Positions 1 to 37,285 of a stretch of DNA of 64,000 bases are shown here, one piece after another. Source of the DNA: Cyanophora paradoxa CCMP329. Lineage: Eukaryota; Plantae; Glaucophyta. Below the pieces are notes generated by a model. It searched no databases, had not been told where the DNA came from, and worked only from the letters and a program-made list of their open reading frames with translations. Within the stretch, counting starts at the first letter, position 1; the number at the start of each line of letters is the position of its first letter. A program made the position numbers and the translations under genes. The DNA is taken from contig QPMI01000567.1 of assembly GCA_004431415.1 (NCBI GenBank), positions 1 to 64,000 on the forward strand, read 5' to 3'.

Positions 1-228
1 TTGCCTTTTCTGTTCGCGATATTCTTCATTTTCCCTGTATTTCCTCTGGTGTCTGAGGGCAATCTTTTTGAGTTCTTCTGGTGTGTGAACTGTAGCGGCT
101 CCTTGGGATAATCGTTCCTCCTTCTTTTTATGATAGGCTTTCGCGTTTTCTTTGGGCATCTTGCTCCCTTTTCAGTCTCAGCTTCTCTGTTTTTCATCAT
201 CTGTGAGTATCTTGCGGATATTCGGCAT
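1..228 (-). CDS. Small basic hypothetical viral protein (frameshifted, runs off the window)
   Basis: ATG at 228 (MPNIRKILTDDEKQR…). Downstream frame reads ELKKIALRHQRKYRENEEYREQKRQ, resembling AIRHILAMQKRYREDPAYREYKKQQ in the adjacent ORF. Confidence 0.4.
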
Positions 229-274
229 TTCTCTTTAATAGTAGATACGAAAAATAATTTTTCCTCAATACAAC

Positions 275-625
275 CTATCTACTTTTTCTTAAGTCATTTT
301 TTGCGGTCAACACCAGTTCCTGTCTGTAAAGTTTTATAGCTGCCTCAGTGGCATACTGAGACCGCTTTTTCTCAATTATCTTATAGACCTGGGGGTCCAT
401 TGCTACTTTCAGTAGGCAATAATATTTAATCGGGTCTTCCTCTGGGTCTCTGCTCCTCTTTTTGGGCTTTTCTGCGATAATAGGATGCCAGGCTTGCTGC
501 TTTTTATACTCTCTATATGCTGGGTCCTCTCTATATCGTTTCTGCATTGCTAGAATGTGTCTAATAGCACCCTCAGTTAAAGGCTCATCACTGGTAAACT
601 CGATCAAACTAATAGTGTCCTCCAT
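275..625 (-). CDS. Hypothetical basic viral protein, 116 aa
   Basis: Intact ATG-initiated ORF in the co-oriented minus-strand viral gene run. Confidence 0.65.
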   Translation of the reverse strand: MEDTISLIEFTSDEPLTEGAIRHILAMQKRYREDPAYREYKKQQAWHPIIAEKPKKRSRDPEEDPIKYYCLLKVAMDPQVYKIIEKKRSQYATEAAIKLYRQELVLTAKNDLRKSR

Positions 626-881
626 TTATATTCCCAGAGAAAACGTTTTCACCAGGTAAAGAACTTCTCCTTGGATACTCCTGTTGCTCATATGTATACT
701 CTGTGGGGTCTGCTGGCATTGACTCCACAGAAACTGTAGACCTCCTTCTCTCTCTTGCTTCTGAGGCATTATCCTCATTATCTGACATCTCAAACTCCAC
801 TGTTGTCTCACAACATCCACTGTGGCAATTGCTCACCACATGCAGACTGAACATCTCGAAGAACTTTCGTATTATGTCCAT
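609..881 (-). CDS. Hypothetical viral protein, 90 aa (CHSGCC motif, acidic)
   Basis: ATG-initiated ORF with an AT-rich leader, co-oriented with its neighbours. Confidence 0.55.
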   Translation of the reverse strand: MDIIRKFFEMFSLHVVSNCHSGCCETTVEFEMSDNEDNASEARERRRSTVSVESMPADPTEYTYEQQEYPRRSSLPGENVFSGNINGGHY

Positions 882-903
882 ATCTCTAATAAAACAGAGA
901 TAA

Positions 904-1269
904 TTAAAGCCAAACTCGTCTTTTATATACTGTTGGGGCTCCCTTTTCTACTTCAGCTTTGGTGGCACCAGGTTCAATGGTTCCCTTTTGGGTTTTGTTT
1001 TCATTTCATCTACTGCCTGCTCATCGATTTGGTCTCTTTCTTAGCAATAAACTGTTTATCTGGGACACCAGTAATGCCCATTTTATAAACTTCCTTTCGA
1101 AGCATCTCCTTTAGCTTGGCTCTCTCTTTCTTCTCAGTAACATACTGCTCCAAGGCACTTGATTTGGCTTCCAGATCTTTGAGTTTAGCAGTCATCTCAT
1201 CCCATTGAGCCTTGGGAATTCGATGAATATTTTGAGTGGGAGCAGTCTTTATGTGACTTCACCAGCCAT
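904..1269 (-). CDS. Lys-rich coiled-coil hypothetical viral protein (frameshifted; includes ORF 1010-1195)
   Basis: ATG at 1269. Frames join as MAGEV…KTAPTQNIHRIPKAQWDEMTAKLKDLEAK…EMKTKPKREPLNLVPPKLK…RRVWL*. Confidence 0.5.
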
Positions 1270-1293
1270 AGACTGATTACCTTGTCTGATTCT

Positions 1294-1629
1294 TTACTGA
1301 ACCTCACCTTTGCGAGCCAGTGATAGATCTTGCAAGCCTAGACCTTTATCATCAGCAGCTCCAATAATTCGCCTGGCACCCTCAGCAACAGCCTTCATTT
1401 TCGAAGCTTCTGGTGATATATTGAGTTGGTCAGCAGTTGAACTTTGTGGGGCTTTGTCATCGACTGATTCCTCATAGGCAGCATTTAGGGGGTCTTCTTG
1501 GGGTTGTGAGGGTTTGATTTCGTTCATACCATTGAATTTCATTGGTTCAGTGTTAATAGATCCATTGTTTCCACCACCTGAATAGCCAACAGCCCCAGCT
1601 GGGATCCCTATTTTTCGTTTGGGAGGCAT
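1294..1629 (-). CDS. Hypothetical viral protein, 111 aa, with N-terminal NLS-like PPKRK
   Basis: Intact ORF beginning MPPKRKIG; leader AATAAAGATACA-ATG. Confidence 0.65.
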   Translation of the reverse strand: MPPKRKIGIPAGAVGYSGGGNNGSINTEPMKFNGMNEIKPSQPQEDPLNAAYEESVDDKAPQSSTADQLNISPEASKMKAVAEGARRIIGAADDKGLGLQDLSLARKGEVQ

Positions 1630-1649
1630 TGTATCTTTATTAGAATGAG

Positions 1650-2419
1650 AGATAATTTTATAAACCGCGTTTATATCGCATCAATTTATTGCTATGGACT
1701 TGGCTTTTCACTTCTTTGGGGGCTTCCTCTTTCTCTGGTGGTTTCAGTTCATCTTCTTTCTTTTTTGGCTTTCTGTGGAAGCGAGGAAATGGGAAGTCTT
1801 TACAAGCTCAGCTTTATCTACAAGTATTTAACTGAGTAGCCAGCAGAGGACCAAACGATATACTGATAGGAGTGACATACTCTTCAAACATTGTAAAAGT
1901 CCTCTTGTTTCGCATTATATTGTATTCTTCCTCTATGGCTTCAAGTTCTTTGCGATTAGCAGCACTCAGAAAAGCATAATCAGAATTAACTCGAATAGTG
2001 AAGAGACTTTCTGAGTTTGTGTGATGCAGATAATGGATATTTTCGAATGCCCCTACTGTACAGAGATGACACCACTTGTCTCTGGTTAATCAATTATCTC
2101 ATTATCAATTAAATCATCTAAAAAACACACATGTGGTTGACAGGTTCACCTTTTCGATTTTCTCCTGCCTTTCATCCAAAAGCTTTGAAATGTAACCGGC
2201 ATCCCATTTACCAAGTTCTACTGTTGCAACCTCTCTCCAGAAATGATTGAAGCTGGTCCCACTCACAACTAGACAACATCAATAACTTTGGCATCATGTA
2301 TATTGCTTTAACCAATACTTTACACATTCGCTTTTTCCCGTACAACTTTTGCCTATAAAAATGGCTCTGAAAACACCTTTAATCATTTCAGAGACATTAA
2401 ACTCTTCTAAATCTTGCAT
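1650..2419 (-). CDS. A32/FtsK-HerA family genome-packaging ATPase (several frameshifts; missing from the ORF track; 3' end approximate)
   Basis: Manual translation: MQDLEEFNVSEMIKGVFRAIFIGKSCTGKS (Walker A), then HMCVFLDDLID (Walker B), then HSKISIICITQ and IRVNSDYAFL, typical A32 motifs. Lies directly beside the capsid gene. Confidence 0.88.
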
Positions 2420-2478
2420 TGTTGTAGATCTTCCTAAATAAAGACAGATAAAAATAATGCAGGGAGACTGAATATGGT

Positions 2479-3834
2479 CTATAAATTGATTCTACGAACA
2501 CCTGAACCGTCTATAATGAGGAAATTATGCATTAAAGCGCGAACTTGAACATTGATTGTCTTATCTGTGGGCATGTAGAGTGTGAGGAATGAAGATGAGG
2601 AATTTGTCAGGTCAACAAATCCACTTTGAGCAATATTTCGAATCGCCTTCTCTCCATCAATGCAGAAACTTAAACCTGAAAGGACATATTTATCTGCAAC
2701 CTTATCCATGTTAGAGCATTGAATGCATCAGCAATTAGCTCAGCACCTTTGAGTAGGGAAATTGGCTCAGTGCATAAGTCGTTGTCCATAATTTCAACAG
2801 TGAAAGTAATATCTTTGGAGTTGGCATAGGTCTTAAGAACACTGTGGGAGCCATTGGATTTGTCAACAGTCTCATATCACGAACTGAAACAGCAGAGCAT
2901 AGACAAGACCTGAGATTTGAGAGAGGTTAATTCGATTGGGCTGGGCATTGCCCTTGGCAGGGAAAGCAATGGCATCTACAAATCCAATATCAAGGGAGGG
3001 AATAGCCATGCCAGTTGTCTTAACCTTTTCAATGACAGTAGCGAAAAGCTCATCAGAAACATTAATAGCATGCATGTAAGGCGAGGAGAAGTAATTGAAA
3101 TAGCAGGGGTTGTTGCACCAAGACTGAAAGTGTGATGTTTTGACCAACATGGCAAGTGTAGCATTAGCAGTATCACCAAGACCATCATCTTCTGTCTTAT
3201 CAGCAGCTGTCCCACCAACAACAGGGAGAGAGCGACCACCATAGGAAGTTTCAACATAACCCTTTCCAGCATCCTTAAACCAAACAGTAACAACCATTTC
3301 ACCAGATAAAGCACCAAGGGGAAGATAGTGATTTAGCCAAGGCACTGGGATCTCAACGAAAAATGAGCCACCAAGTCGGTTGGTTCCATGAGCAGGGATA
3401 CCATGAACCATGCCCATTGAGCGTTTCTTTTTAGCTAGTTGATCCTCCGAATAATAGACCAGGGGAAATGAGCAAGGAAATCAGAAGGGATGTGGTAGGT
3501 GTAAGATCCATAGGTAATTTCAAGTCGCTGAACTAAAGCACCAACTGGGCGAGTGTATCCATTGCGAACTAGATCTTCACCAGCAAAAGTGATGGCTGGA
3601 AGGTCGAAAGCAAGTTCGAGTTTTCCACAGAAATTGTAGCGAGGTAGCTGAAGGAAATGCGATTTCCAACATTATTCTCAAAAGTATTGCTGGGATTCAC
3701 AACAACTAGAACTGGCTTAGACTTGGATTCGAGACCAAGCATAGGGAGTTATCCAGGAAAAAGGCTTTCGCCTCCTCTGGGGTTGTTAGGGCTTCTTTCA
3801 GCGAAAGTCTTTGAAGAGTGGAAGTGATATCCAT
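2479..3834 (-). CDS. Double jelly-roll major capsid protein (~450 aa, split by frameshifts; includes ORFs 2872-3417 and 2479-2709)
   Basis: ATG at 3834. Motifs LPRYNFCGKLELAFDLP, VGALVQRLEITYG, FFVEIPVPW…LPLGAL…VVTVWF, SGFVDLT and VRALMHNFLIIDG parallel the conserved blocks of NCLDV/PLV capsids. Confidence 0.85.
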
Positions 3835-3887
3835 TATATTCTCTTTTATTATACTGCAACATAAAAAATCTACCAATGATCCTTAAT

Positions 3888-4897
3888 TTATGCGAAGTTT
3901 GTAATAACTGGATAGGAAGGGTGAAGCTGTGACATTCGCATCTTGAAGTATTCATAAACTGGGTCCCCAGCTGGCTCATCACCATAGCGAATTTCAAAGG
4001 TAAGATGAACAGGTTGACCCTCAAAATCAATTGGTTCATTAATAGCATTTACAATATCAACCGAGAAAGTGGATAATCCAACCTTTTTATTATAGTATTT
4101 GTAAAGTGGGTGAGCTTCTGTTGAATTGTAAACAACATGCTCACCATAGTCTTTATCAGGGACCACTATTTTGTGAAAGTAACCAGTCAGAAGACCATCC
4201 CCACATTGCACCAGATCACCCAGCTCCTTTACTCTCACAAACAAAACACTGTCCCTGGTCTTCTCAGGCTCAAAAGAAGATATAATGCCATTCACGCGAC
4301 CACCAGTAAAGATTCCATCAGTGAGAGCATCATAGACCTGTGATTGGATTGGGGAGTTACCATATCTTCCAGGATCAAGACCCAGCAGTCTAGCTGAACT
4401 CAACAGCTTTTGGATTGTTTGTTGGCTTGGGTTCACAGCTACTGAGAAAGCCAAGTAAAATGGTACTGCTGAGTGGAATATAATTCGTTTCAGTGATTCA
4501 TCCCATTTGCAGCGAATGGATGGTTGGGGATTTCTGCCTTCGAATTTAGAGTTAATTACATTCACCAGTTGCTGGTGGCTTTGGATGGGGTGTTTCGACT
4601 TATAATGAATTGTTTCCATTGTTCATAGTCAGCAGCTGGGCGAACTGTTGGAATTCCTGAGCTTCCAGCTCCAGGAGTTTGTTCAGAATAATAAATGCTA
4701 AATGCATTGTCAACTGTCACATCTCCTGCTTTGGTTTCACCACTCACCATAGGGATACTGTTATAAAATTCGGCTGAGACCAGTCTCACAGCCCTCACAT
4801 TCTCATAACTACTGGGGAGTCTAGCCACAAAGCTTGATGTGGGACCATCACCAGAGATTGTATTAAATGAGCTAACCTCGATGTAATCCACAGGCAT
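3888..4897 (-). CDS. Minor capsid (penton) protein 1, single jelly-roll (one frameshift near 4,600 joins ORFs 4562-4897 and 3888-4619)
   Basis: N-terminal YIEVSS…FVARLPSSYENVRAVRLVSAEFYNS and C-terminal LSTFSVDIVNAINEPIDFEGQPVHLTFEI match the penton consensus. Confidence 0.8.
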
Positions 4898-4926
4898 TCT
4901 TCTTTTATCTATATTTATATATTAAA

Positions 4927-5859
4927 ATGAACCGGCTCGTTAATATTGATAGCAGGGATAGAAGCCAAGGACAAAATGAAAACTCTTACAGGGTCACCCT
5001 CACAACTCCAGTAGAGAGACCAAGGGAATGTAGGGTTCTCTATGCAGAGATTCCAAACAGTATCTATAACAGTGTGGGAACTGATCATCTAACAGTTCAG
5101 TTTAATTACCAAGATGGTTCATATAACCAAGTGATCACACAACAAGTGTATCCCCTTCCCAGTGGCTACATCAATCAGGGTCATTTTGGGGTCACACACC
5201 CTTATAATTATGGGCTGAACTATTCAAGCTTCCAAACTATTGCAGGCAAAACAGTAGCTTTTGAGTTCAAGATATTCTACAACCCAACAACCTATAAAGT
5301 GGAGTTTTACAGTAACCATGAGTTTCGTTTTATTGCAAGCAACCAGAGAATAGGAAAGCTTTTGGGTGTAAGTTCTACTGAATACACTAATGGGTATTAT
5401 AGCACTCCTCCTGTTGGTGGATCTCCATATCGACCTGAGAACCTTTTAAAGTATGATGGCAAACCTATTACACCTGATCACCCAGCATGGGGAATCACCT
5501 TCTCAGGACCCAGACTCTCCTCAAAGCCCTTGCAGTATTATTTCACCAGTAATAAGATGTCTGATATGAATGCTGAGCAGTATCTGTACATGCATATTAA
5601 AGAGCTAGCCCCCTTTGCCAGCAGACACAATATAATTCCGAAATCGCAACCACACAACCAGGGGGCTATCCTTAGATTGCAATTGAGTAAAGATATAGGT
5701 GGCTATGTTTACCATAGTGGTGAACATGCAGAATTTATTCAAATCAATGACAGAAACCTGGTGATAAGGGAACTCACTGTGGAGTTTAAAGATTACTTTG
5801 GTGAACTGATTGATATGAATGGAATCGATAATTCGTTTCAGTTGGAGTTTATCGAATAA
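4927..5859 (+). CDS. Minor capsid (penton) protein 2, 310 aa
   Basis: VNIDSRDR N-terminus, AEIPNSIYN, YLYMHIKEL and C-terminal LTVEFKDYFGELIDMNGIDNSFQLEF. Confidence 0.85.
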   Translation: MNRLVNIDSRDRSQGQNENSYRVTLTTPVERPRECRVLYAEIPNSIYNSVGTDHLTVQFNYQDGSYNQVITQQVYPLPSGYINQGHFGVTHPYNYGLNYSSFQTIAGKTVAFEFKIFYNPTTYKVEFYSNHEFRFIASNQRIGKLLGVSSTEYTNGYYSTPPVGGSPYRPENLLKYDGKPITPDHPAWGITFSGPRLSSKPLQYYFTSNKMSDMNAEQYLYMHIKELAPFASRHNIIPKSQPHNQGAILRLQLSKDIGGYVYHSGEHAEFIQINDRNLVIRELTVEFKDYFGELIDMNGIDNSFQLEFIE

Positions 5860-7402
5860 AGGCACCTGTGAAATCAACTCTCATTGTGGGAGCATTCACA
5901 TACACAAGGGATAAATGCGAATATATTTGATTCTGAGAGAGAAACCTATGTAAAAAGCATCCTTGATGCTTAGAGGAAATCCACTCAATAGAGCCACATC
6001 ACCAGAGTTGTGAGCATTGTTAATGTTCTCACAGACATATATTTTGTTTTGCCCATCTGATCGAATAAAAGACCAGTTGATCCATCAGTGGATGTTGCCA
6101 CATTGAAAGTCTTAATAAAAGCATTTGTTTCCCCTGATCCATAGGCAATCACAGAAGAGAGTTCAAAAGTATATGGAAAAGCAACTTGTAGGTATTCAGT
6201 GGGGTTTCCCATATCTGTTCAGGAGCATAGGCTCCAGCTTCCCAGCCAAATGCTGAAGGTCTTGCCATGAAAGGCTCTTTACCTGTCACAGAGGATGAGG
6301 CAGTAAAGGCATCATCTGCAAGCTGATACCAATTGGCATCCAAAGGAGGTGATGTAGTGAGAGTGGATGAAATGTAAGCCTTTGAAGGGTTCTTTAGTTC
6401 ATAGTTTGCTACTAGAAGGCTGCAAAGCTTATTTATCATATCATTGTTTGCTGCTATGTATGTTTCAGTGAATGCTAGCATATCTGGGATCTTAGAAGTG
6501 TCATCAAGGGAGCTTACTATGTGATTTGGAAGTGGGACTGATAGCCTATAGTATCTCCCATAATCCTGATCATAGTTGTAGGGTAACAACTCCTCCATCT
6601 TATCAAGGGCAGAAAGCTCACTTGCAGCCATGAGCATGTTAATCAATGGGCTTCCATCTGTTGAGGCAATCCATGAGAGAATGCCCCAGCTGTTTACAGT
6701 CTCATAAGCATAACCCACATAATCAGACTCTAAATGTGGGTCCACCTCACCACAAGAGATACTTATTACTATAATATCATCATCATCACTGTAAATCTTC
6801 TTTGCATGGCTGTAACCACACACACTGGGATTATTGTTTCCCGAAATGGCACCATCAATGAGACAGACAAATACTCCCCGATTGAAATCAACAATGCTTA
6901 CAGGAGAGAAATATGTAGGAGCAGCAGAAGTAGCCCTAGCAGCAATCTTACAAGGCATAAAGTTGTAGTTGTTGTCATTTGTGATAAATATTGGTTTCAT
7001 ATTCTGAGTATCAAAGGATGTAATCACAATGTCCTTTAGGGAATCCTGTATTAGTGATTCACCAGTAACTGAATTGATTGCAGTCTCCAAGGGTCCCACA
7101 TCATACTTTGTATTAAAAAGGGCATTTTCGATTATATTTCGAGGATTTGCGAAAATCAAGGGCAGTTGAGTTAGGTAAATATTGTGTAAATCGTTTGCTG
7201 TCAGTTTAGGTTCACCTGGTTTATCAGGATGCCTGATATTCAAACCTATTGCAATGATCCCACCAGTGGAAGTTCCACTTACAAGATCCACAAGATCGAT
7301 TATTCTCCTGCCAGTTCGATTTTCGATTTCTTTTAGCAGCCTGGTTATGATAATGCCCCTTGCACCTCCCCCTGATAAAGACAGGCAGATTTTCAAGGGC
7401 AT
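5849..7402 (-). CDS. Patatin-like phospholipase fused to a C-terminal F5/8 type C (discoidin) domain (frameshifts after ~6,210)
   Basis: Patatin motifs GGGARG, GTSTG, ATSAAPTYF and DGA. C-terminal AFTASSS…ARP…W / EYLQVAF…VIAYG…FIKTFNVATSTDG / MRVDFTG fits a discoidin fold. Confidence 0.85.
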
Positions 7403-7445
7403 CTTTTACTTATCAGGAATTTTATAAATCCATATAGTAAAAGCC

Positions 7446-10400
7446 ATGAGCTTCAATTACCCACCCAATCTAGAAACCATTCAAGATGATAATGCAAGCA
7501 GCACCAAGCATGTGAACTTTGATAATATTAAAGTAAAGGGTTCAGTTTCAATTGACCACAGTTCCGATAATTCATCCAAGACTCAATCAAGGGAGCATGC
7601 TTTATCTGTGAATCAAACTGATCCAAATAAAGAAGATGTCAGTGTTGCTTTTAGTTTGGGTAATGTGAAAGCCAACCAAGTAGCAGAGATCAAAGCAACA
7701 AGAAGGAGACCTAGGAAACTGAAAACCAGTGGCACTCACCCAGATATACCTTCCAGGTTCGATAGTGGTCGATTGATTTTCAATGTTCAAGATGAGCAGG
7801 GCAAACAGAACACAGCTTTGCGAATTTACAATGAGGGCAGCACTGCAAAAGCTGAGGTCCCCCAAGTTTTGCAAGTTGGTCCTATTGCCAATACAAATCA
7901 GGTCTCCTACACAAATGATGTATACCCTAAGGATATTACATATGACTTTGCGAGGAATGAGCCTTTTGGTTTCTTTACTCCAAAAGATGTCCATCAAAAA
8001 AAGCCATCAATTACAATCAACAGTAGCCCCAGTCAACCAGTAGCAATCCATTTACATCCTGATTTAGTCGAAATGGATAGGCACCTTTTGCCTTTGTATA
8101 GCAATGTGAAAGACCTTGGAATTCGAACCAGGCAATGGCGAAATATCCATGGCAGCAATGTGTATGCAAATGGTGAGAAGCTTGTAAGTGAGAAGACCAT
8201 AAGAGAGATCTTTGAGTATTATGGACCTGTCCCAGTTCCCTTCCCTCTTCCATGGGATCCACCGGATTTAACACCGAAAAAGCAACCAGGCAGAGAGTAC
8301 ACAGCAACTGAAGATGTAGCCTTTGGGCAGCATATTGTGAGTTGGGAGCAAGTTCGCAATAAACCTATAATTGAACCCAGAAAGCAAATAGATGAGCAGT
8401 ATTTACCTCCTGAAGTCGATATATTAGAGCTTGATGAATATCAATTCGTTCCAGATGAGGAAGAGTATTTACCAGATGGTTTCGACCCACAAGAGTATGA
8501 ATATGATCAATATGACCCCAATGAGGAGGAGATACTACCAGATGGCTTAGATCCACAAGAGTTTGAGTATGAGCAGAACTATGAACCTGATGAGGAGTAT
8601 TTGCCAGATGGGCATGATCCACCAGCTGTTGATTATGAGCAACCTTATGAACCCCATGAGGAACTATTACCAGATGGATTTCGCCCAGAGATTTGGGAAT
8701 TCTTCCCTGATTGGGAGCAGATCAACAATAAACCAGCCAGATATCCACCAGAGGATCACAACCATGACTGGGATGAGATCTTAGGCAAACCTCAAAAGTA
8801 TCCACCAGAGGATCACAGGCATGATTGGGGTGATCTGGATGGGATACCAGATAAGTTTGCAGCAAGCAACCATGAACACACTTGGGATGAGATCAATGAC
8901 CAACCAGAATTCGCAAAGGTAGAGCCTCTTGATAACTTGGGGGTTTCTCTTTATCAGACTTGTAATGTCCCTGAAAGAATCTTTTTGAATGAACACTATG
9001 TTCATGTGAATGGGACACTTGCGAATTCAGCTATGAGAGGACCACTTCATATTAGGACACTACCAGGCTCTTATAATCCACCACCTGAACCAGGAGCAAC
9101 CATACCAAATATCTTTGTGTCAAGCTACATGGAGGCTGACATTCCCACAGATACATTCAGAGTCCCAACAGACCCAGCAACCTACCAAAATTTCAACTCT
9201 GCTATACAGGTTCATGTAGCAGATGTAAGCAGTTTAGATGGCTCAAGACCAATGATAGTATTCAGCAGAGATAAATATTCGTATATTCCCATAGTGGGAA
9301 CTGCAAATGATAATTATGGGAGGGCAGAGCTTGCATGGATTAAAACCGATTATGGTGGGGTCCTGGAAGCCAATCAGAGGATGGCAGCAAAAAACATACA
9401 CAATGAAAATATTTCGAGAGTAGTCACAGAGGATTATTTAGAAGAGCAAGGATATATTGATGAAGGTGAACTCACAAATATTCTTTCTCTTTTTGTGATC
9501 AAAAATGACACAAACCTTACAGTCACTTCCAATATCTACACCAGTAACCTTTATACAAGTAACATTTTCACAAGTAACCTATGGGCAAGTAACATTTGGA
9601 CAAGAAAACTATGGGCAGATGATATTTACACAAGTAATCTTACAGTGTATCGAAATATAACAATTGGAACACAAAACACTATACAAATACTTTATAGACC
9701 TTACTATGCTGTTACTACTGTCATTGATCCAGCCCCAATTATTCCAAATTGTATATTTGCATGGAAAGCATCAGGTCAACATGGTCAGTTGATATATTAT
9801 CAAGGTCAGATATATAACAGAGTTACTACACAGATACCATATCTAACAAATTATTCGAATTGGGAAACTGTTTATTATTATTTGAATGCAACCCTAAACA
9901 ATCAAATTTCGATTGGGAAAGAATTAAACATGGCTTATAGGAATAGTGTTTCAATAGATTGGTCATTAGGTCTTACATTATTCTTTATAGGTAGGATCAA
10001 TACTACAAATCCTTCTTATATGTTGAGTATAAGGGATAGTTCTTATCAAAATTGGATTGGATATGGTTGTAAAAATCAAAAGTTTGGTGTTTCACTACAA
10101 ATTCAAAACGATATAGAAAATGCAACTCCTCCATTATTCGATGCATCATATATTTATAATTCGTGGAATTATTGGGATTTCACTGTTTCCTCAGAGCAAA
10201 TTGTCGTAGGAATGGGTGGTATTGATATTGGAACATCATCGGGTGATTTTCTTCCACCTTCTAATTTTGCATCATTTGGTTCTTCTGTTGCTAATGGAGA
10301 TCTTGCCGAAATTATCGTTTTCAATCGTGCGTTATCTATTGAAGAAAAGAACGCGGTTAGATATTATATACAATTATTGTATGGATTTCCAAATACGCAG

Positions 10401-13340
10401 CCCATATTGAATAATGAAGATCTTAAAATTAATTCGAGCAATATATTTATTGAAAATCTCACAGTTACCAAAAATGCAACTCTACCACATCATCCAACAT
10501 CGAATGTTGTTTTAGATTGGTTAGCAAAACAAAAACACACAAAAGCAGATATTACGGATTTCGCCCATACTCACACAAAAGATCAAATCACAGATTTCGC
10601 CCATACACACACCAAAGATCAAATAACAGATTTCGCACATACTCACACAAAAGATCAAATAACAGATTTCGCACATACTCACACAAAAGATCAAATAACA
10701 GATTTCGCCCATACTCATTTATGGGAGCATATCACAAATCCTCCGTTAACCTTCCCACCTGATTCACACACTCATGATTATTCAGAGATTACAAATAGCA
10801 ACCACAGGCACCCATGGAGCGAAATAGACGAACAGCCAGTTTTTGCCCAATTGAATGCAATCGGAAACGTTTTTAATGGAGTCACACTTTACCAATCGAG
10901 TAATACACCTGAAAGGCTATTTTTGAATGATCATTATGTTAGTCTCAATGGTTCATTTACAGGTCAAGACGGCACACCGATGGTGGGAACTCTTGCAGTA
11001 AGATTACCCAGGGATCCAATCGTAAATGGAGTGTATAGTGGCGATTTCAATGTAGGAGTAAACGATACTTTCCCCAGTATCTATGTTACGAATTATCACC
11101 CAGGAGAAATAGGACAAGTAGCGGATTTTTCAGCAGCTATTCAAATTAACGTAACAGATCAAAGCGCATATGATGGAGCAAGACCTAAAATAGTATTCAC
11201 AAGGGAGAAAGTTGTAAACTATCTTCCCGTTGCGGGACAACCCACAGATGATCACGGGAAATGTGAGATGGCGTGGATTAAAACGACATCAGGTGGCGCC
11301 TTAGAAGTCAATCAAAGAATGGCGGCGAAAAACTTACACAATACAACCCTTTCAGGTGTCGTTACAGATGATTACCTTACCAATAAAGGATATCTTACCA
11401 CCGCAGATCTCAGCAGTTATGTAACAGAAACTGAATTAACGACGGCGTTAAATCCTTACGCAACAGATGCAGAATTAACTACGGCTCTTGCGAATTATTT
11501 ACCTCTTACAGGTGGAACCGTCACCGGAACCGTTAACGCTACCACTTTACAAATTGGCGGAACCACAATACCGAAAGGTTACGAATTCGACCAATTAGAT
11601 ACTGTTTCGACAGATAGAAGCGCTAATAATTGGACTGTAACATGGGGAGCGAGAACAGGGCAAACAGGGTGTTTTACTACACCAGCAAATGATGAAGATT
11701 GCAGCGGTTGTTTTATGCGTTGGATAGTTCCGACAGGTATGAAATCATTTTATATTCAGCATTTACCGTGGAGTAGTGGGAGATATTTTGATATCTACGG
11801 TCAAACTCTAAATGGGTTTCAGCATTTCTTAAAACGAGTTAATAATTATCAAGCAATAGCAACTACCGGAATTCAAGATGGAACACATCCGGCTATTCTC
11901 TTTATTTCAATAAATTGTGAGTTTTACAAGTATATTTATGTTCAAGGTCGAAAAGGTCGCATTCATCTTACGGGGGTTTTCGGTTGGAGTAGACAAAGAG
12001 CAACGGATAATGAGGTTGGTATGATCTCTTGGGATAATATATTTAGCAAACCGTCATTTTACTCAGCCGCAGACCTTCCACAAACCGCAACATGGGCAAC
12101 AAATACATGGTTAAAATCAGTAGATGCAGTCGAGCGAATTTGGTTTGGTAATGGCGATTGCACATATATACGAGGGAGACCGAATGGTGTCGGTGTGTCA
12201 ATTGAATTTAGAGACTCAGCAGATGGAGCAATTTTAAAGTCTTATAACAATGGTAACTTTTGGGTGAAAAACACTATTACAGCACCTACTATTAATGCAA
12301 CCACCACACTCCAAATAAACGGTAATGATGTCCCAAAGTTTCACACAGTAGATAAAGCAGTAGGAGGTATTGCATTTAATAGATGTTCTGAGGGTTGGAC
12401 ATGGGCATGGAGTTCAGAATGGGATCCATATTATAATTATGGTTCATATGTTTATAATAATCAAACGGATGATCAAACATCTACCGCTTGGATTGACTTC
12501 GATATACCCGATGGATACCACACAGGAACAGCATTTTTAACCTATTTACCTTGGACTAACTCACGAATTTTTGAAATTTGGGGACTCAATCGACAAGGGA
12601 ATGAAGTTTTTATTACATCAGTAAATAGTTATCAACCATACAGCACATCTCCTAATAGTAACCACAGCGGTTTAAATAATGTTCCTATACATCTCGGTAA
12701 TCGATTTTTGACTATTCGGATTAGACCAAAGATTGGAAGAGTTCATATTATGGGTATAAGTTACATGAAAATTTGGGTTGGACATAGTTATGGAGGTCAC
12801 ACCGGTTATATTCATTGGAATAATGTTTATAGTAAACCAAATATCTTAACAGGGGCATTGGATCTTTGGTTTAACTCTAATGATGGATATAATCGTATCT
12901 ATTTTACGAATAATAGCACCACGTATTTTAAAGGAAGAGGAACTTATCCAATAAGATTTCGAAATGAATTAGATTCTGATATTTGTTGGATCGATCATGA
13001 CGGGCGGATGTGGATAAACAATTATTTAACACAAGGAAGTGACAGAAGATACAAAACAGATATTAAAAAGATAACCGGCGCTCTTTCAGCAATCGAAAAA
13101 TTAGAAGGAGTGAGTTTTAAACGAATTGGGAGTGAAAAAGACGGAACAAAATTAGGTTTAATTGCGCAAGATGTAGAAAAGGTAATACCAGAAATTGTAA
13201 GTGTCACAAAAGAAGATGGTTACCTTTCTCTCGAATACACGGGTTTAATTCCAGTTCTCATTGAAGCTGTGAAGGAGTTGTCCCAAAAATGCAAAGATCT
13301 ACAGGATCAAATAGACCAAATTAAAAATGTCAAAGTATAA
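7446..13340 (+). CDS. 1,964-aa fibre/tail-like structural protein with C-terminal peptidase S74 intramolecular chaperone
   Basis: SDRRYKTDI…LGLIAQDVEKVIPEIV…YTGLIPVLIEAVKEL plus coiled coil (S74). Also HTHTKDQITDFA phage-tail-type repeats, a LamG-like GDLAEIIVFNRALS, acidic YLPDG repeats and internal module duplications. Confidence 0.85.
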   Translation: MSFNYPPNLETIQDDNASSTKHVNFDNIKVKGSVSIDHSSDNSSKTQSREHALSVNQTDPNKEDVSVAFSLGNVKANQVAEIKATRRRPRKLKTSGTHPDIPSRFDSGRLIFNVQDEQGKQNTALRIYNEGSTAKAEVPQVLQVGPIANTNQVSYTNDVYPKDITYDFARNEPFGFFTPKDVHQKKPSITINSSPSQPVAIHLHPDLVEMDRHLLPLYSNVKDLGIRTRQWRNIHGSNVYANGEKLVSEKTIREIFEYYGPVPVPFPLPWDPPDLTPKKQPGREYTATEDVAFGQHIVSWEQVRNKPIIEPRKQIDEQYLPPEVDILELDEYQFVPDEEEYLPDGFDPQEYEYDQYDPNEEEILPDGLDPQEFEYEQNYEPDEEYLPDGHDPPAVDYEQPYEPHEELLPDGFRPEIWEFFPDWEQINNKPARYPPEDHNHDWDEILGKPQKYPPEDHRHDWGDLDGIPDKFAASNHEHTWDEINDQPEFAKVEPLDNLGVSLYQTCNVPERIFLNEHYVHVNGTLANSAMRGPLHIRTLPGSYNPPPEPGATIPNIFVSSYMEADIPTDTFRVPTDPATYQNFNSAIQVHVADVSSLDGSRPMIVFSRDKYSYIPIVGTANDNYGRAELAWIKTDYGGVLEANQRMAAKNIHNENISRVVTEDYLEEQGYIDEGELTNILSLFVIKNDTNLTVTSNIYTSNLYTSNIFTSNLWASNIWTRKLWADDIYTSNLTVYRNITIGTQNTIQILYRPYYAVTTVIDPAPIIPNCIFAWKASGQHGQLIYYQGQIYNRVTTQIPYLTNYSNWETVYYYLNATLNNQISIGKELNMAYRNSVSIDWSLGLTLFFIGRINTTNPSYMLSIRDSSYQNWIGYGCKNQKFGVSLQIQNDIENATPPLFDASYIYNSWNYWDFTVSSEQIVVGMGGIDIGTSSGDFLPPSNFASFGSSVANGDLAEIIVFNRALSIEEKNAVRYYIQLLYGFPNTQPILNNEDLKINSSNIFIENLTVTKNATLPHHPTSNVVLDWLAKQKHTKADITDFAHTHTKDQITDFAHTHTKDQITDFAHTHTKDQITDFAHTHTKDQITDFAHTHLWEHITNPPLTFPPDSHTHDYSEITNSNHRHPWSEIDEQPVFAQLNAIGNVFNGVTLYQSSNTPERLFLNDHYVSLNGSFTGQDGTPMVGTLAVRLPRDPIVNGVYSGDFNVGVNDTFPSIYVTNYHPGEIGQVADFSAAIQINVTDQSAYDGARPKIVFTREKVVNYLPVAGQPTDDHGKCEMAWIKTTSGGALEVNQRMAAKNLHNTTLSGVVTDDYLTNKGYLTTADLSSYVTETELTTALNPYATDAELTTALANYLPLTGGTVTGTVNATTLQIGGTTIPKGYEFDQLDTVSTDRSANNWTVTWGARTGQTGCFTTPANDEDCSGCFMRWIVPTGMKSFYIQHLPWSSGRYFDIYGQTLNGFQHFLKRVNNYQAIATTGIQDGTHPAILFISINCEFYKYIYVQGRKGRIHLTGVFGWSRQRATDNEVGMISWDNIFSKPSFYSAADLPQTATWATNTWLKSVDAVERIWFGNGDCTYIRGRPNGVGVSIEFRDSADGAILKSYNNGNFWVKNTITAPTINATTTLQINGNDVPKFHTVDKAVGGIAFNRCSEGWTWAWSSEWDPYYNYGSYVYNNQTDDQTSTAWIDFDIPDGYHTGTAFLTYLPWTNSRIFEIWGLNRQGNEVFITSVNSYQPYSTSPNSNHSGLNNVPIHLGNRFLTIRIRPKIGRVHIMGISYMKIWVGHSYGGHTGYIHWNNVYSKPNILTGALDLWFNSNDGYNRIYFTNNSTTYFKGRGTYPIRFRNELDSDICWIDHDGRMWINNYLTQGSDRRYKTDIKKITGALSAIEKLEGVSFKRIGSEKDGTKLGLIAQDVEKVIPEIVSVTKEDGYLSLEYTGLIPVLIEAVKELSQKCKDLQDQIDQIKNVKV
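10536..10715 (+). repeat. Coding 36-bp tandem repeat x5 (HTKDQITDFAHT)
   Basis: cacacaaaagatcaaataacagatttcgcacatact repeated in frame, with mostly synonymous variation. Confidence 0.95.
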
Positions 13341-13343
13341 TAA

Positions 13344-13649
13344 ATGGCGACCTATCCTCTTGGTGGAACCACCTATTCTACTGAGCCTGTTGCGCTTTCT
13401 TTTGATACAATCACCCTTGTAAACGCATTACAAACAGTTGAAAAAACGATTCAGCAAACTAACAAGCTCTCACCAGTTGTCAATGAGTATAAAAACCTCT
13501 TGGTTAATGTCCTTGCCAAATCTGCATATGGTGACCCTGTTGCTAAATACACTGAGTGTGATAACAATATTAAAGCAATGACATCCAACCTTCAAACACT
13601 TTCAGTTGCCTACCAATCCCTTGGATCGAATTTAATCACTTTGGCTTGA
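13344..13649 (+). CDS. Hypothetical helical viral protein, 101 aa
   Basis: Intact ORF starting 3 nt after the fibre stop codon. Confidence 0.75.
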   Translation: MATYPLGGTTYSTEPVALSFDTITLVNALQTVEKTIQQTNKLSPVVNEYKNLLVNVLAKSAYGDPVAKYTECDNNIKAMTSNLQTLSVAYQSLGSNLITLA

Positions 13650-13688
13650 TTGCAGTTTATTTTTCTTTCCTTCTTAGTAAAAGAAGCA

Positions 13689-14543
13689 ATGGGTGAATAT
13701 AATCGAGTTCAACTGCCTATATATTCCCTTGGATCCCCTGCAATGCATTTTCGCCAGCATGAAGTAAATGATGAGGTTCGTGGTTTAGAATCCACAGAGA
13801 GACCCAATTCCAATGGCAACTCCTTTGATAAAAATTCGATTATTCGAGTTAAAGAGCTGAGAGCTGATAAGAATTCTGGTGTGGTTAAAACAACTCGACT
13901 TCTTGTCACAAATGCTAACTTCTTTCAGCCTACTAATGGAGGTCCTGATGCTTACAGTGTTGATCTGAAAGCCCTTGATTATGATAAAAACACTGCTGCT
14001 GTAACTGTGAGATCAGGAGGAGCATTTATTGGTGGTGGCTGCAGAGTTTCAGGTCAGCTATCTTCATCTGTTTCCTACAATGATGTCCCAGATACTCTCG
14101 AACAAAATGTGGAGAACCCACAACGAATTCGTTTCTACACACCTGTTGCACAGCAACCTTTTTTGCATTTCTATGTTGCATCCTCTGTAACTCTTGAGAA
14201 TTCGGAATTAGTTTCCATTACAGGAACTGATCGAGTAAGAAGAAATATTCCTCTTCCCACTGCAATGCTTTCCATGTGTAGAGCCAATAATAATCAACCA
14301 GGACACAACTACTTATTCTTTGTTCAAGCTTCGAACCATTTTGGCAGAGGATATTGTGTTTATAACAATTTGACATTTACCTATGATCTGTTTGTCACTG
14401 AGGTTGGAGTATACAATACTATGATTATGGGACTGAGAACAGATATAGCAGCTGTATCAGCACTTCGTGGGGTAAATGTTGCTGATATATTCACAACAGG
14501 ATTTTACCAAGAATTAGATGTAATTGATGACCCAACCCCATAA
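13689..14543 (+). CDS. Hypothetical spike-like viral protein A (paralog of 14567-15400)
   Basis: First ATG at 13689 behind AGTAAAAGAAGC. Shares its N-terminal ~130 aa with the next ORF (GLESTE…ELRADKNSGVVKTTRLLVTNANF…SGGAFIGGG). Confidence 0.75.
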   Translation: MGEYNRVQLPIYSLGSPAMHFRQHEVNDEVRGLESTERPNSNGNSFDKNSIIRVKELRADKNSGVVKTTRLLVTNANFFQPTNGGPDAYSVDLKALDYDKNTAAVTVRSGGAFIGGGCRVSGQLSSSVSYNDVPDTLEQNVENPQRIRFYTPVAQQPFLHFYVASSVTLENSELVSITGTDRVRRNIPLPTAMLSMCRANNNQPGHNYLFFVQASNHFGRGYCVYNNLTFTYDLFVTEVGVYNTMIMGLRTDIAAVSALRGVNVADIFTTGFYQELDVIDDPTP

Positions 14544-14566
14544 AAGATATATCCCTTTAATGTAAA

Positions 14567-15400
14567 ATGGCTGAGCAACCCCCACTTGAACGAATTATTA
14601 CACCTCAGCTATCATTAGCTGCACCAGCAAACCATGTTCTGCAGCATGCTACTTTTGATGATGTAGAGGGTCTCCAATCAACAGAGGTCCAACCTACAAT
14701 GAACACCTTTGGTTCCACCCATAAACTGAGATTACAGGAACTCAGATGTGATAAAAATAATGGAATAGTTAAGACAACTAAGCTACTTGTTACCAATGCA
14801 AACTTTTCTGCTCATTATGGAGACCCAGATAGCTATGGAGATCCTCTTTCTACTTATTCTTTTGAATCTAGGTCGGGAGCTATTAACTGCAAATCGGGGG
14901 GAGCTTATATTGGTGATGGTCTTAGGGTTGGTGGGGCTGTTGGAGCGCCTTTATTTGTGAATGATCAACCCAATCCCATTGATCCCAATACAAGAATTCG
15001 AACCTATGTCCCCAGCATGAATGCCCCCTATATAATCAAAATATTCCCCATTGTAGTAAATGAACAGACAGCAGTAGTAGATTCTCTTGTTGAGATTGGT
15101 GACCACTACAAGGTTGTTGTGGATATTCCACCAGATGTATATGCTGTATGTCAAGTGGAGGGTGGAACTCCTAATTTTGCAGTTGTGATCACCCCATATG
15201 ATAATTTTGGTATTGCTTATCATGGAGTCAATTTCGGTTTGGAAGACTATCAGTTTCTGGTTAGAGCCACCAAGTTTGGTATCTACAAGTGTGTATTATA
15301 TGCTGAGAGAACCGATTTTATTGCAAAGCAGAATACCTATGCTGAATACTATGGGACAAATCGATATTTCCCCATTTTTGGGCAGGATACTGCTCCATAA
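14567..15400 (+). CDS. Hypothetical spike-like viral protein B, 277 aa
   Basis: GLQSTE…ELRCDKNNGIVKTTKLLVTNANF…SGGAYIGDG; divergent C-terminal half. Confidence 0.75.
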   Translation: MAEQPPLERIITPQLSLAAPANHVLQHATFDDVEGLQSTEVQPTMNTFGSTHKLRLQELRCDKNNGIVKTTKLLVTNANFSAHYGDPDSYGDPLSTYSFESRSGAINCKSGGAYIGDGLRVGGAVGAPLFVNDQPNPIDPNTRIRTYVPSMNAPYIIKIFPIVVNEQTAVVDSLVEIGDHYKVVVDIPPDVYAVCQVEGGTPNFAVVITPYDNFGIAYHGVNFGLEDYQFLVRATKFGIYKCVLYAERTDFIAKQNTYAEYYGTNRYFPIFGQDTAP

Positions 15401-15422
15401 GAATATTGGTTATATATAGAGT

Positions 15423-15695
15423 ATGGATAGTAAAACAAAAAAGTTTATTGATGCTGCTATGACAGTTCATGGTAAAGATAAATTCGATTACAGTGAGACA
15501 CATTACATCAAAGCTCAAGAGAAAGTATCTGTTAGATGTTTGCAGTGTAATAAGGTGATCCTTACCTATCCCTTTAATCATGTGAAGGGATCAGGTTGCA
15601 GGGAATGCAACAAAAAACATTCTCAGGCTTACAGGAAAAGGGCTTCTTCATCAATCACAGTGGAATATAGGGATGTTTGCATTAGGTTCGATTAG
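15423..15695 (+). CDS. DUF723-like zinc-ribbon protein, 90 aa
   Basis: FIDAAMTVHGKDKFDYS…CLQC…HVKGSGCREC pattern, as seen in modules attached to phage/NCLDV endonucleases. No nuclease domain is present here. Confidence 0.7.
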   Translation: MDSKTKKFIDAAMTVHGKDKFDYSETHYIKAQEKVSVRCLQCNKVILTYPFNHVKGSGCRECNKKHSQAYRKRASSSITVEYRDVCIRFD

Positions 15696-15724
15696 GTTTA
15701 ATTAATTTTTCTAAGGTATTCTTA

Positions 15725-16123
15725 ATGGAGACTCAATACAGAGGCTTTCATGTTATGCTTGATTACAAGGCTAAATCAGCTATTGCAACAGGACATGAGC
15801 ATGTTAGCTTCCTAGGTAATTGGATTATGGGAACCCTTGAACAAGCTATATTAAGACAAGGCATAAGAATTGTTCATAAACACTGTGAGATATTTGATGG
15901 GAAACTATCACCTCCTGGATTTGCATTGGTTCTGCTATTAGATGAAAGCCATTGCACAGCTCATTGTTATTCCAATGAAGGCATGTTAGCAATTGATATA
16001 TTCAGTTGTGGTAAAGAAGCTCAGCATAAAACACAAGCAGTAGCAGATGAGATAGATAAAACAATGAATTTCCTCACATTTGAGAAGACTGAGAGAAATA
16101 AACATGAAAGATTCCCGTTTTGA
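15725..16123 (+). CDS. speD: Prokaryotic-type (short, pyruvoyl-dependent) S-adenosylmethionine decarboxylase proenzyme
   Basis: GFHVMLD, PPGFALVLLLDESHCTAHCY (ESH autocleavage site) and AIDIFSCG; 132 aa. Confidence 0.9.
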   Translation: METQYRGFHVMLDYKAKSAIATGHEHVSFLGNWIMGTLEQAILRQGIRIVHKHCEIFDGKLSPPGFALVLLLDESHCTAHCYSNEGMLAIDIFSCGKEAQHKTQAVADEIDKTMNFLTFEKTERNKHERFPF

Positions 16124-16124
16124 T

Positions 16125-17214
16125 GAGTTTCTATAATGATTTGTTAAAGGATTCCTTTGTTTTCTAACAATAACATTGATCAGCTACTGTTACAAAAGGA
16201 TATAATATATCCATTTCCTACAGTAGCTTTCTACAATGATTATTTTCCGGATTCCGGTTATTGTTTACAGTAGAAATCTAATGTATGATGTAGCCGAAAT
16301 ATGAATGCACCCTACACCTTCAGGTGTAAGATTTCGAATACTATTCGATTTCCTTACACTAAAACTCAGCATCTGCCCTAGATTCCCCCTATTATATAAT
16401 ATTTATATTAAAGTGGACTCAAGGTTGACTCATATTAATCGTAAAAGTAGTAATAGTATATGGATTTTGTTACGAATTCAATGCAAGGGTTGACTAAGTG
16501 GGTTGAGTTGACTCAAATTTCACAGGAAATATTTGGGACCTAAAGTTTTCTAAAAAGGATTTCAAAAAATGTGTCAACTCCCCCCACTTAGTCAACCCTG
16601 ACCATAAACAGTAAGGATTTGAGCTAACATGTATCACAAAGTGAACATTTTGAGTCCACTTAGAAGATCCACTTTTGAAATCCAAGTTGATTTTGCTTGA
16701 AATTTCAAAGTTGATCTAAAAGTGAGTCCACCCTGATTGATTATGGTAACAAAGTTGACTAAGTTGACTAAGTTGAGTCATCTTAAGAAATTCAAAGAGA
16801 CTAAGAGTTCAAAATGTTTATGAAAAGTGAGTCAACTTAGACCACTTCTGATAACAAAGTTAAATATTTAATTGATTTAATCGGAAAAGAACATGATTTA
16901 ATCGAATTTATTGATATAATTCCGATTAGATTCATTTAGGATTCAATTAAGATCAATCGAAGTTATTGATATAATTCCGATTAACTACAATTAAGATACA
17001 ATATCGATTAATCGAGTTTATCGATATAACATCGATTAAATTAATTGAAAATGCATATAAAAATATGAAAATTCAGGTGAAAATTCAAATAAATTAATCG
17101 ATTTTATTGATATAACATCGAATCACACATATGAATATTCATATTTTAATCCTGAGGCGGAACGCCGAGGGATTAAAATATGAATATTCATATGTGTATA
17201 GTGTTATAAAATAT
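16125..17214. repeat. Non-coding, repeat-rich viral terminus (probable TIR/origin region)
   Basis: About a dozen GTTGACT/AGTCAAC/GTCCAC-type motifs in both orientations, a ~27-bp inverted repeat (16486-16512 / 16573-16599) and four TTATYGATATAA… direct repeats (16,905-17,120). Confidence 0.7.
17125..17197. repeat. Perfect 28-bp inverted repeat (hairpin/cruciform) at the virus end
   Basis: acacatatgaatattcatattttaatcc (17125-17152) and its exact reverse complement (17170-17197). The loop contains GGCG-GAA-CGCC. Confidence 0.95.
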
Positions 17215-17464
17215 CCGAACCGAGACGGCGCCGGTCTTCGCGGCGACGGGGGCGACCGAAGCGAAGAACGTGACGAGCGAGCCAGCGGTCTGACGGGATC
17301 GGAGGCGGGCTCGAATTCAGAGCCGTTGCGTGGAAGAGGTTTTTATATTGAGCACCTTGGCATCAGCGAGGTTCACGCCAGACTTCGTGGCCTCCTGGTT
17401 AACGACCTGCAGTAAAAGGCTGCATTCAGACTGCGAAAGAGACCGAATAAAACGACGCTGGAAT

Positions 17465-21799: not shown

Positions 21800-21866
21800 T
21801 AGCAGAACTTCGGAAGCCAACTTAAGCTTGAAGGCCGGGCCTCCTCCGAGTCAGAGGCTCCGACTA

Positions 21867-22802: not shown

Positions 22803-22890
22803 TAGTAATCGGTACTGTACCAGCCTGACAGTGTACCCGGGTGATGCGGCACATGATCGTCGCTAGCTTCGCTCCGTTCCGAACTAAGTA

Positions 22891-36407: not shown

Positions 36408-36430
36408 AAGATATATCCCTTTAATGTAAA

Positions 36431-37263: not shown

Positions 37264-37285
37264 GAATATTGGTTATATATAGAGT

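Follow-up and report, generated by a model that had tools for sequence, protein, structure and literature searches.

The right-hand arm of an integrated, multi-copy and probably polinton-like virus in the glaucophyte Cyanophora paradoxa

This study concerns the first 17,197 nucleotides of a 64,000-nucleotide stretch of Cyanophora paradoxa CCMP329 DNA (assembly GCA_004431415.1, contig QPMI01000567.1, positions 1 to 64,000; hereafter the window), which are the right-hand arm of one integrated copy of a small virus whose left side is cut by the window edge. Based on the findings presented below, we assign a probability of about 0.78 to the interpretation that this arm belongs to a copy of an integrated, multi-copy family of polinton-like viruses (PLVs) in this alga, with predicted fibre-bearing icosahedral virions and a spread that is likely to be driven by an integrase at the hairpin end. 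The capsid fold, an A32-type packaging ATPase, the gene set, a fixed end and the many flanks joined to that end agree on an integrated small double jelly-roll virus, as had been proposed in a preliminary description made from the DNA letters alone, and the gene calls of that description were largely upheld by Pfam matches, paralog alignments and modelled folds. The features of PLVs in the broad sense that are present are a double jelly-roll capsid (as judged from the fold of its paralog P0001), the A32 ATPase, penton 1, and integration at many sites with a fixed end.

The element has a GC content of 0.39 across positions 1–17,197, compared with 0.58–0.69 in three host stretches. Its minus strand carries the ATPase, the capsid, a likely second penton and a patatin-discoidin gene, all four with frame breaks, while its plus strand holds, as open frames, penton 1, a fibre, a 101-aa open reading frame (ORF), two paralogs of each other, a 90-aa zinc-finger-like ORF and a homolog of AdoMet (S-adenosylmethionine) decarboxylase. 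The element represents a worked example of a family which surveys have counted but not described, with its gene order, its exact end and a replication hypothesis.

The hairpin end and the copies that share it

The element terminates in a 73-nt hairpin (17,125–17,197) with 35-nt arms and a 3-nt loop, which was recognised by folding and by a drop in contig depth. The 136-nt stretch that contains it folds at −37 kcal/mol (z −10.65), and none of 200 shuffled sequences folded as well. The element ends with the final hairpin base, 17,197, as indicated by contig depth, values in the thousands giving way to tens or hundreds at 17,197–17,204, and by the differing flanks that begin at 17,197–17,201. The preliminary description was therefore correct in that the element ends in a hairpin against GC-rich host DNA, while an end near 17,214, as stated there, is ruled out by the depth drop and the flank joins at 17,197. 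At least eight other flanks, mostly GC-rich, meet the same end among the contigs listed, six of them behind 17,197–17,201 and two on the mirror arm, and the terminus is nearly invariant across copies.

The element is widespread in the sequencing data of its host: in 14 runs under one organism label (2012–2024; 11 studies and three rows without a study), 63–67% of the words of 7,500–17,400 were present. All 24 runs listed bear a single organism label, which agrees with the capsid family and the GC-rich flank in pointing to C. paradoxa as the likely host. The contigs aligned to 1–19,500 numbered 8,415 in run X1, 4,419 in X5 and 3,281 in X10, many of them being only 85–99% alike. In these three runs, which are DNA or unlabelled, summed contig depth was 430–40,540 within the element and 51–373 in the flank, while single contigs of X10 had depths of 1,907–1,950 inside the element (one contig of approximately 1,950 spanning 16,852–17,149) and 40–51 outside it; contig depth is, as the tool warns, no direct copy number. 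This difference within X10 suggests tens of near-identical copies. Because its end is joined to at least eight other flanks and its depth is far above that of the host, the element belongs to an expanded, integrated multi-copy family. The junction of the window itself is covered without differences, at host-level depth, by contigs at 17,170–17,245 (X10, depth 60) and 17,171–17,245 (X9, depth 225).

Other joins were observed near this end. In two runs there are contigs whose sequence ahead of 17,162 is unlike the window, the outer hairpin arm being the only shared part, which represents a possible left end or second family; in three runs, contigs carry different sequence ahead of 17,216, possibly an empty or paralogous host site. 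None of the listed runs that hold words of the element is labelled RNA; runs X16 and X15, RNA by guess and possibly DNA, hold contigs on the lipase tail, paralog 2, the decarboxylase and the element end, and these do not constitute evidence of expression.

A palindrome likewise forms the extreme terminus of the integrated element in the virophages and PLV subtype 4 of Halocafeteria seosinensis, where it is a proposed hairpin primer, albeit in a different host and with a figured length of 52 nt as opposed to 73 nt in the Cyanophora element; in the available part of that preprint, such terminal palindromes are proposed to prime replication and accompany non-pPolB replicases and rve integrases (bioRxiv 10.64898/2026.07.28.741278). 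Because of this association, a primase-helicase and an rve integrase are predicted for the left arm, which beyond the window would likely encode the integrase and the replicase, and the terminal hairpin would favour a primase-helicase over a protein-primed polymerase. A rival pointer to this hairpin model is provided by C. paradoxa contigs with divergent variants of adintovirus-like PolB-/integrase-virus proteins, for which the available part of PMC8502044 does not specify the family.

Packaging ATPase, capsid and pentons

The frame-broken genes of the window were assessed through unbroken natural paralogs, namely P0007 (261 aa) for the ATPase and P0001 (456 aa) for the capsid. An A32-like genome-packaging ATPase with the Walker A motif GKSCTGKS and several frameshifts lies at 1,664–2,419 on the minus strand; P0007 aligns to it by tblastn over 260 of its 261 aa (58% across the breaks, E 1e-75) and itself matches Pfam Pox_A32 (E 3e-11), and a search with the ATPase matched no phage record. 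The double jelly-roll major capsid protein, also with several frameshifts, occupies 2,482–3,834 (minus strand) and is matched by P0001 over 456 of 456 aa (tblastn, E 4e-77), a 183-aa piece of it being 47% identical to P0001 across 99% of that piece.

The capsid fold was modelled on P0001 and not on the window copy, from five sequences (mean pLDDT 59.6, pTM 0.65). The model is a double jelly-roll, for which Foldseek returned the PBCV-1 capsid with an E value of 4e-17, while VIA aligned 346 residues to the PBCV-1 capsid chain with Z 25.9 and a root-mean-square deviation of 4.1. The corresponding Z values were 24.4 for faustovirus, 18.4 for PRD1, 15.4 for Sputnik and 13.7 for mavirus, at identities of 6–14% overall. 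At the sequence level, P0001 had no Pfam family at E values up to 1, and sequence searches for PDB entries related to the capsid, the ATPase, penton 1, either paralog or fibre segment 9,741–10,442 were negative. P0003, which had appeared as a capsid relative, was dropped as a spurious match to a bacterial cadherin-repeat protein.

Penton 1, a minor capsid protein of 310 aa in an open frame (4,927–5,859, plus strand), showed a likeness of 0.97 in the ESM Atlas to viral clusters, with Sputnik V18/19 in 44% of the members of one cluster and DUF5901 in 12% of those of another; its Atlas recognition value was 1877, below the bar of 2300 set by the tool. Against Pfam DUF5901 it scored an E value of 0.015. 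A likely second penton lies in two frame pieces at 3,888–4,897 (minus strand) and is suggested by a weak N-terminal likeness to penton 1, which 13 of 2000 shuffles equalled in a region picked post hoc; three other comparisons of the two, BLASTP included, were not significant. Of the two pentons that had been called originally, the first is thus supported by the Atlas and DUF5901, and the second is likely on the basis of its motif likeness.

With regard to the frame breaks, a comparison within the window is informative. The stretch 13,528–22,935, which includes the virus–host junction, recurs at 35,394–44,783, a repetition absent from the preliminary description, with no substitutions and 20 single-base gaps over 9,409 aligned bases, such that a second copy of the last 3.67 kb of the element is found by self-alignment at 35,394–39,055 (plus strand), within a 9.4-kb duplication that also includes host flank. 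All 20 gaps fall in runs of at least two identical bases, and 19 of them are losses in the second copy. In the region 1,032–6,200, short-read contigs have one-base insertions relative to the window at 12 of the 12 places among those listed, and frame breaks in protist endogenous viral elements (EVEs) are often artefacts according to the available part of Bellas 2023 (PMC10120064). Since the duplicate copies differ only by homopolymer gaps and the short-read contigs carry one-base insertions, the frameshifts in 1–6,200 are likely sequencing errors. The duplication itself is either a very recent event or an assembly artefact; its start falls within a viral ORF, and it is embedded in an array of GC-rich repeats of 2.6 kb.

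Accessory genes and catalogued elements of C. paradoxa

The largest gene of the arm encodes a modular fibre of 1,964 aa (7,446–13,340, plus strand), composed of acidic repeats, a duplicated module of approximately 260 aa, 12-aa HTHT repeats, a duplicated module of approximately 250 aa and a C-terminal S74 chaperone domain. It was identified by internal repeats, by Pfam S74 (E 1e-15), by PTR (E 0.0024) and by PHROG tail-fibre matches, phage matches being confined to the HTHT repeat region. Segment 9,741–10,442 resembles by eye what we take to be a LamG/concanavalin pattern, which Pfam did not confirm. The distal fibre segment (10,001–13,340, plus strand) lacks the CpG depletion of the remainder of the element, with a CpG observed/expected ratio of 0.96 against 0.29 (Fisher p 1e-20), the boundary at 10,001 having been picked from the profile itself, and contig depth is lower within the fibre at 9,751–10,400 and 11,701–13,000. 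Because of this CpG ratio and the lower contig depth, the distal fibre is likely to be a recently acquired, variable host-binding module; neither the phage search nor the viral-contig scan pointed to a donor of this CpG-rich stretch. The CpG depletion of the copies may be due to CpG methylation by the host, of which the available part of PMC12344493 reports 32% in C. paradoxa together with methylation of virus-derived genes.

Upstream of the fibre, a patatin-like phospholipase with a C-terminal discoidin-like domain extends over several frames (5,862–7,402, minus strand). The patatin part matches Pfam with an E value of 1e-20 and contains the catalytic motifs GGGARG, GTSTG and DGA, while the discoidin part was recognised from one frame piece as F5_F8_type_C at E 0.0017, under the Pfam cut-off. 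The best NCBIfam match of the patatin part (6,149–7,402, minus strand) is the CBASS cGAMP-activated phospholipase (CBASS_lipase) with an E value of 3e-36 and 125 bits against a cut-off of 200.

Downstream of the fibre are two paralogs with 33% identity to each other (E 2e-41). Paralog 1 (284 aa; 13,689–14,543, plus strand) is possibly a short lectin-tipped spike, and the ESM Atlas gave no usable match for it. Paralog 2 (277 aa; 14,567–15,400, plus strand) has two homologs at 63–64% (one from Logan and one from ENA), and a poor model (pLDDT 42.6) predicts a C-terminal beta-sandwich for it with a weak likeness to H-type lectins and fibre tips (Foldseek E 0.12). The top ranks for its C-terminal part go to one H-type lectin and to fibre tips of phages or pyocins, four in number, with Z values of 4.3–5.0 that lie within the common-fold range. 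The paralogy noted originally is thus borne out, and the description of these proteins as spike-like is a lead at the level of these fold matches.

The last gene encodes a small prokaryotic-type AdoMet decarboxylase homolog (15,725–16,123, plus strand) with Pfam AdoMet_dc at E 5e-11 and TIGR03330 at E 2e-11, below cut-off; its ESH self-cleavage site and FSCG motif are present, and such motifs are of catalytic meaning. Small enzymes of this prokaryotic type are carried by some algal giant viruses and many phages, some phage homologs using ornithine or arginine (PMC9992855, available part), and by analogy the substrate in the Cyanophora element could possibly be AdoMet, ornithine or arginine.

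Viral elements of this alga have been catalogued previously. P0001 is identical to EukProt C. paradoxa P015758 and shares contig name, length and visible sequence with a capsid in Table S2 of Bellas 2023 (PMC10120064), and a count by eye along one stretch gave 57 identities in 64 positions between the window and another C. paradoxa capsid of that table. Table S4 of the same paper gives 366 C. paradoxa capsids in two clusters (272 and 94), making up approximately 7% of the genome and both labelled 'new'; by column count these are clusters 20 and 28, with 'Mavpol' possibly standing over 28 as an unconfirmed label. The C. paradoxa EVE clusters are defined by at least 25% identity, and with 47% to P0001 the window capsid belongs to one of the two.

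Gene counts for 156 Glaucocystophyceae elements are provided by Table S6 of Bulzu 2025 (PMC12220804), with A32 in 139, minor capsid proteins in 97, rve in 85, pPolB in 49, D5-type primase in 40, Pif1 in 34, S74 in 37, lipases in 89 and AdoMet decarboxylase in 66, and with no tyrosine recombinase or protease. Among the Table S6 taxon rows examined, AdoMet decarboxylase is otherwise confined to three species of cryptophytes (10, 17 and 45). The available text of the same paper describes S74 fibres as ubiquitous in PLVs, and discoidin, at times fused to patatin, as occurring mainly in PLVs of Rhizaria (n=23) and glaucophytes (n=11), with a suggested role in entry.

The C. paradoxa EVEs of these two papers thus have the same capsid family, are recorded with A32, pentons, lipase, patatin-discoidin, S74 and AdoMet decarboxylase, and show no protease. 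The earlier impression that the accessory gene set was an undescribed combination is largely contradicted by the tabulated lipases, S74 and AdoMet decarboxylase and by the fusion named for glaucophyte elements, and the capsid falls in a catalogued set of C. paradoxa elements with largely the same genes. The co-occurrence of these accessory genes in one element is seen in the Cyanophora window and is not derivable from the pooled published counts.

The available parts of both papers give counts, and no family name, tree position or per-element map was found in them, nor any mention of the terminal hairpin, the two paralogs or the second penton for the C. paradoxa family. In the accessible literature, no published account of the CpG-rich fibre tip or of distant environmental capsid relatives was found for it; the searches found no paper devoted to the family, although preprint supplements may place these capsids. 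The name Cyanophora is absent from the main text, as available, of the 2026 PLV framework (bioRxiv 10.64898/2026.06.19.733378), a 2026 mosaicism preprint, PMC11071308 and Bellas 2023. The lineage is poorly described, as had been presumed: it is still unnamed, its capsid clusters are 'new' and, as given below, the standard PLV capsid model hardly matches it. We conclude that the element is a member of a surveyed family; what remains beyond the surveys is an unnamed and unplaced capsid lineage, an exact hairpin end and a likely swapped fibre tip.

A search among 1.84 billion representatives returned six capsid matches at E values up to 0.001, comprising P0001, one Logan paralog, three ENA proteins (27–30%) and one spurious match, which makes the capsid family sparse beyond this alga. 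The ENA proteins P0004, P0005, P0006, P0009 and P0011, on contigs of up to 11.9 kb, are related to the capsid (24–30% to P0001) or to paralog 2 (63%). These sequence matches point to relatives of the capsid lineage in other samples. Scans of viral contigs gave one weak match to the capsid piece, L001, which P0001 did not match, and nothing usable with P0009, P0007, AdoMet decarboxylase, penton 1, alignment A3 or the distal fibre; scans of metagenome contigs with P0001 and alignment A4 likewise gave nothing usable, these scans depending on exact short words and being weak evidence of absence. The exact sequences of seven window proteins were absent from the protein collection searched.

Lineage, rival readings and surroundings

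Broad-sense PLVs (Aquintoviricetes and related groups, including Gezel-14T and TSV) share with the element a small genome, a capsid, a penton, A32, no protease seen, a low GC content relative to the host, many-copy integration and S74 fibres, whereas the Cyanophora capsid has only a handful of sequence relatives and there are two likely pentons. Virophages (Sputnik, mavirus and EMALEs) likewise occur as multiple AT-rich insertions within GC-rich protist DNA, and penton 1 has a likeness to V18/19. Their capsid folds, in contrast, score well below those of nucleocytoplasmic large DNA viruses (NCLDVs), at 15.4 and 13.7 against a top value of 25.9. The MCP-VIR model matched 0 of 156 glaucophyte elements in the available data of PMC12220804, and a cysteine maturation protease, which together with pPolB and an rve integrase would mark a Maverick-Polinton (Polintoviricetes) and is recorded in 0 of the same 156, had no match among the scanned ORFs of this incomplete element. 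The capsid comparisons sustain the original view that the element is not a virophage.

The capsid lineage might instead belong to a small Nucleocytoviricota-related virus of Zora, Zephyr, VC40 or Mriyavirus type, that is, an integrating 'dwarf' with a known algal host and not an Aquinto- or Polinto-type PLV, a reading which we consider unlikely. It draws on eight NCLDV chains with VIA Z values of 25.9–20.2 to the P0001 model, above the PRD1 and virophage values, on the BFVD search, in which the named top matches are NCLDV capsids and MELD virus ranks 48th, and on an HHpred value of 98.47% to an iridovirus capsid listed for the P0001 sequence in Table S2 of Bellas 2023. For glaucophyte pentons, moreover, the NCLDV model has 15 matches and the PLV model none, while glaucophyte ATPases give the opposite picture, with 107 matches to the PLV model and one to the NCLDV model (Bulzu 2025, PMC12220804, as far as available). 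The similarity to NCLDV capsids amounts to an identity of only 10–14%, P0001 lacks a Pfam match, no PLV or Polinton capsid is among the PDB rows listed for comparison, and the capsids of most Polintons and PLVs are themselves reported to be structurally nearer to NCLDV capsids (Bellas 2023, PMC10120064, available part).

Mriyaviricetes (Yutin 2024, PMC11253617) and the Zora, Zephyr and VC40 groups (bioRxiv 10.64898/2026.06.19.733378) likewise have an NCLDV-nearest capsid and a small genome, and some Zephyr-group members, which have no known host, carry lipase ORFs. The latter preprint, in its available part, also defines NCLDV-related PLV groups. Mriyaviruses are described in the portion of PMC11253617 at hand as being 35–45 kb, without integrases and with HUH, VLTF2/3 and RuvC, whereas the Cyanophora element is integrated at many sites, and HUH, VLTF2/3 and RuvC had no match among its scanned ORFs, with only 17 kb seen and the left ORFs frame-broken. 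The motifs LPLGAL (3,324–3,307), HNFLII (2,529–2,512) and IDSRDR (4,945–4,962), which the preliminary description took as NCLDV-like, are present, but they are not diagnostic and were rejected as proof of NCLDV ancestry for the capsid lineage.

In its fullest form, that of a separate, unnamed and small integrating lineage on the Nucleocytoviricota side of Bamfordvirae, with hairpin replication, fibre-tip swaps from outside, a polyamine enzyme of its own, continuing mobility in glaucophytes and distant relatives in metagenomes, the proposal is a doubtful one. If it is true, glaucophyte algae would gain their first described virus lineage, and PLVs would be connected to giant viruses by a group that can be cultured; and if trees favour the giant-virus side, a host would be gained for a small-virus group whose relatives come mostly from metagenomes.

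It is quite improbable that the window copy is a decayed relic, no longer mobile and with a genuinely pseudogenised capsid module. The ATPase, the capsid, the second penton and the discoidin domain are indeed frame-broken, the CpG depletion fits a long residence under methylation, and many substitutions of the window copy are private or in the minority relative to the contigs. The breaks coincide, however, with one-base insertions in short-read contigs, the duplicated stretch shows the same type of error, open frames are retained in the 5.9-kb fibre gene and in the next five ORFs, and the terminus is nearly invariant. That a free or contaminating virus was fused to host DNA by the assembler is very hard to credit: the abrupt 9.4-kb duplication, the many homopolymer errors of the window and the short-read nature of the evidence would allow for it, but difference-free contigs at host-level depth cross the junction in two runs, the other flanks meet the same end, and the sequence is present in 14 runs from 2012 to 2024.

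Several observations weigh against the preferred reading, that of an integrated multi-copy PLV. The contigs at the window's own junction derive from short reads only and hold 28 and 27 virus-side bases, under a bar of 31 bases. The terminal contigs of X10 (2,092 and 1,950) are no deeper than an internal one (1,907), whereas two identical terminal inverted repeats (TIRs) would double the depth. For the virus, the window shows neither an integrase nor a replicase, and a left end, a TIR partner and a target-site duplication are likewise missing from it, the left arm being outside it. The standard PLV capsid model matches only two of 156 glaucophyte elements in the available Table S6 of Bulzu 2025 (PMC12220804), which also speaks for the Nucleocytoviricota-related alternative, and the counts in print combine two capsid clusters without a breakdown by element; 89 lipases and 66 AdoMet decarboxylases need no overlap among 156. 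Finally, the contigs pool many copies, and the window copy could be genuinely broken.

For an integrated PLV of this type, the protein families suggest the following course of infection. The A32 ATPase would package DNA into a double jelly-roll capsid with pentons, and the S74 domain would both bring about trimerisation of the fibre and cleave itself from it. Attachment to the cell surface may fall to the fibre together with the paralogs, and the patatin-discoidin protein could bind glycans and breach a membrane during entry, while a pyruvoyl-type decarboxylase, its activity being predicted, would raise the polyamine supply. Between bouts of activity the copies would likely be silenced by host CpG methylation. 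Since the alga is in culture, virion production and the role of the decarboxylase are open to direct test.

The remaining parts of the arm are minor. Four to five short, frame-broken ORFs at 1–1,630 (minus strand) are unassigned in function, four pieces of them having been scanned without a Pfam match above cut-off or a PHROG match, and the 101-aa ORF (13,344–13,649, plus strand) had no match above cut-off in Pfam, PHROG or NCBIfam. The 90-aa Cys-rich protein (15,423–15,695, plus strand) resembles zinc-finger repeats of phage HNH/endonuclease proteins (PHROG 4605, 681 and 559 at E 3e-9 to 2e-8). The AT-rich non-coding end (16,124–17,197) contains short repeats and an inner inverted repeat at 16,486–16,599 according to repeat analysis, and an Rfam scan of 1–23,000 returned nothing.

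In the host flank, the minus strand at approximately 17,300–20,200 likely carries a host gene with introns, which encodes a Pro/Thr-rich linker and has a weak match to kelch, the virus end being near its 3′ end. A satellite with a 143-nt unit (8.8 copies) occupies 23,932–25,180, and a tandem array of a GC-rich unit of approximately 2.6 kb, with copies approximately 99% alike, occupies 26,277–35,385 (approximately 3.5 copies) and 44,780–52,596 (approximately three copies). A long terminal repeat retrotransposon at approximately 54,500–62,400 (minus strand), presumably of Ty3/gypsy type by its domain order, was identified by RVT_1 (E 9e-22), rve (E 1e-12) and an integrase zinc finger (E 6e-14), and this rve domain belongs to the retrotransposon and not to the virus. 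A cluster of 36–37-nt inverted repeats at 21,603–21,775 and 43,452–43,624 resembles the end of a DNA transposon.

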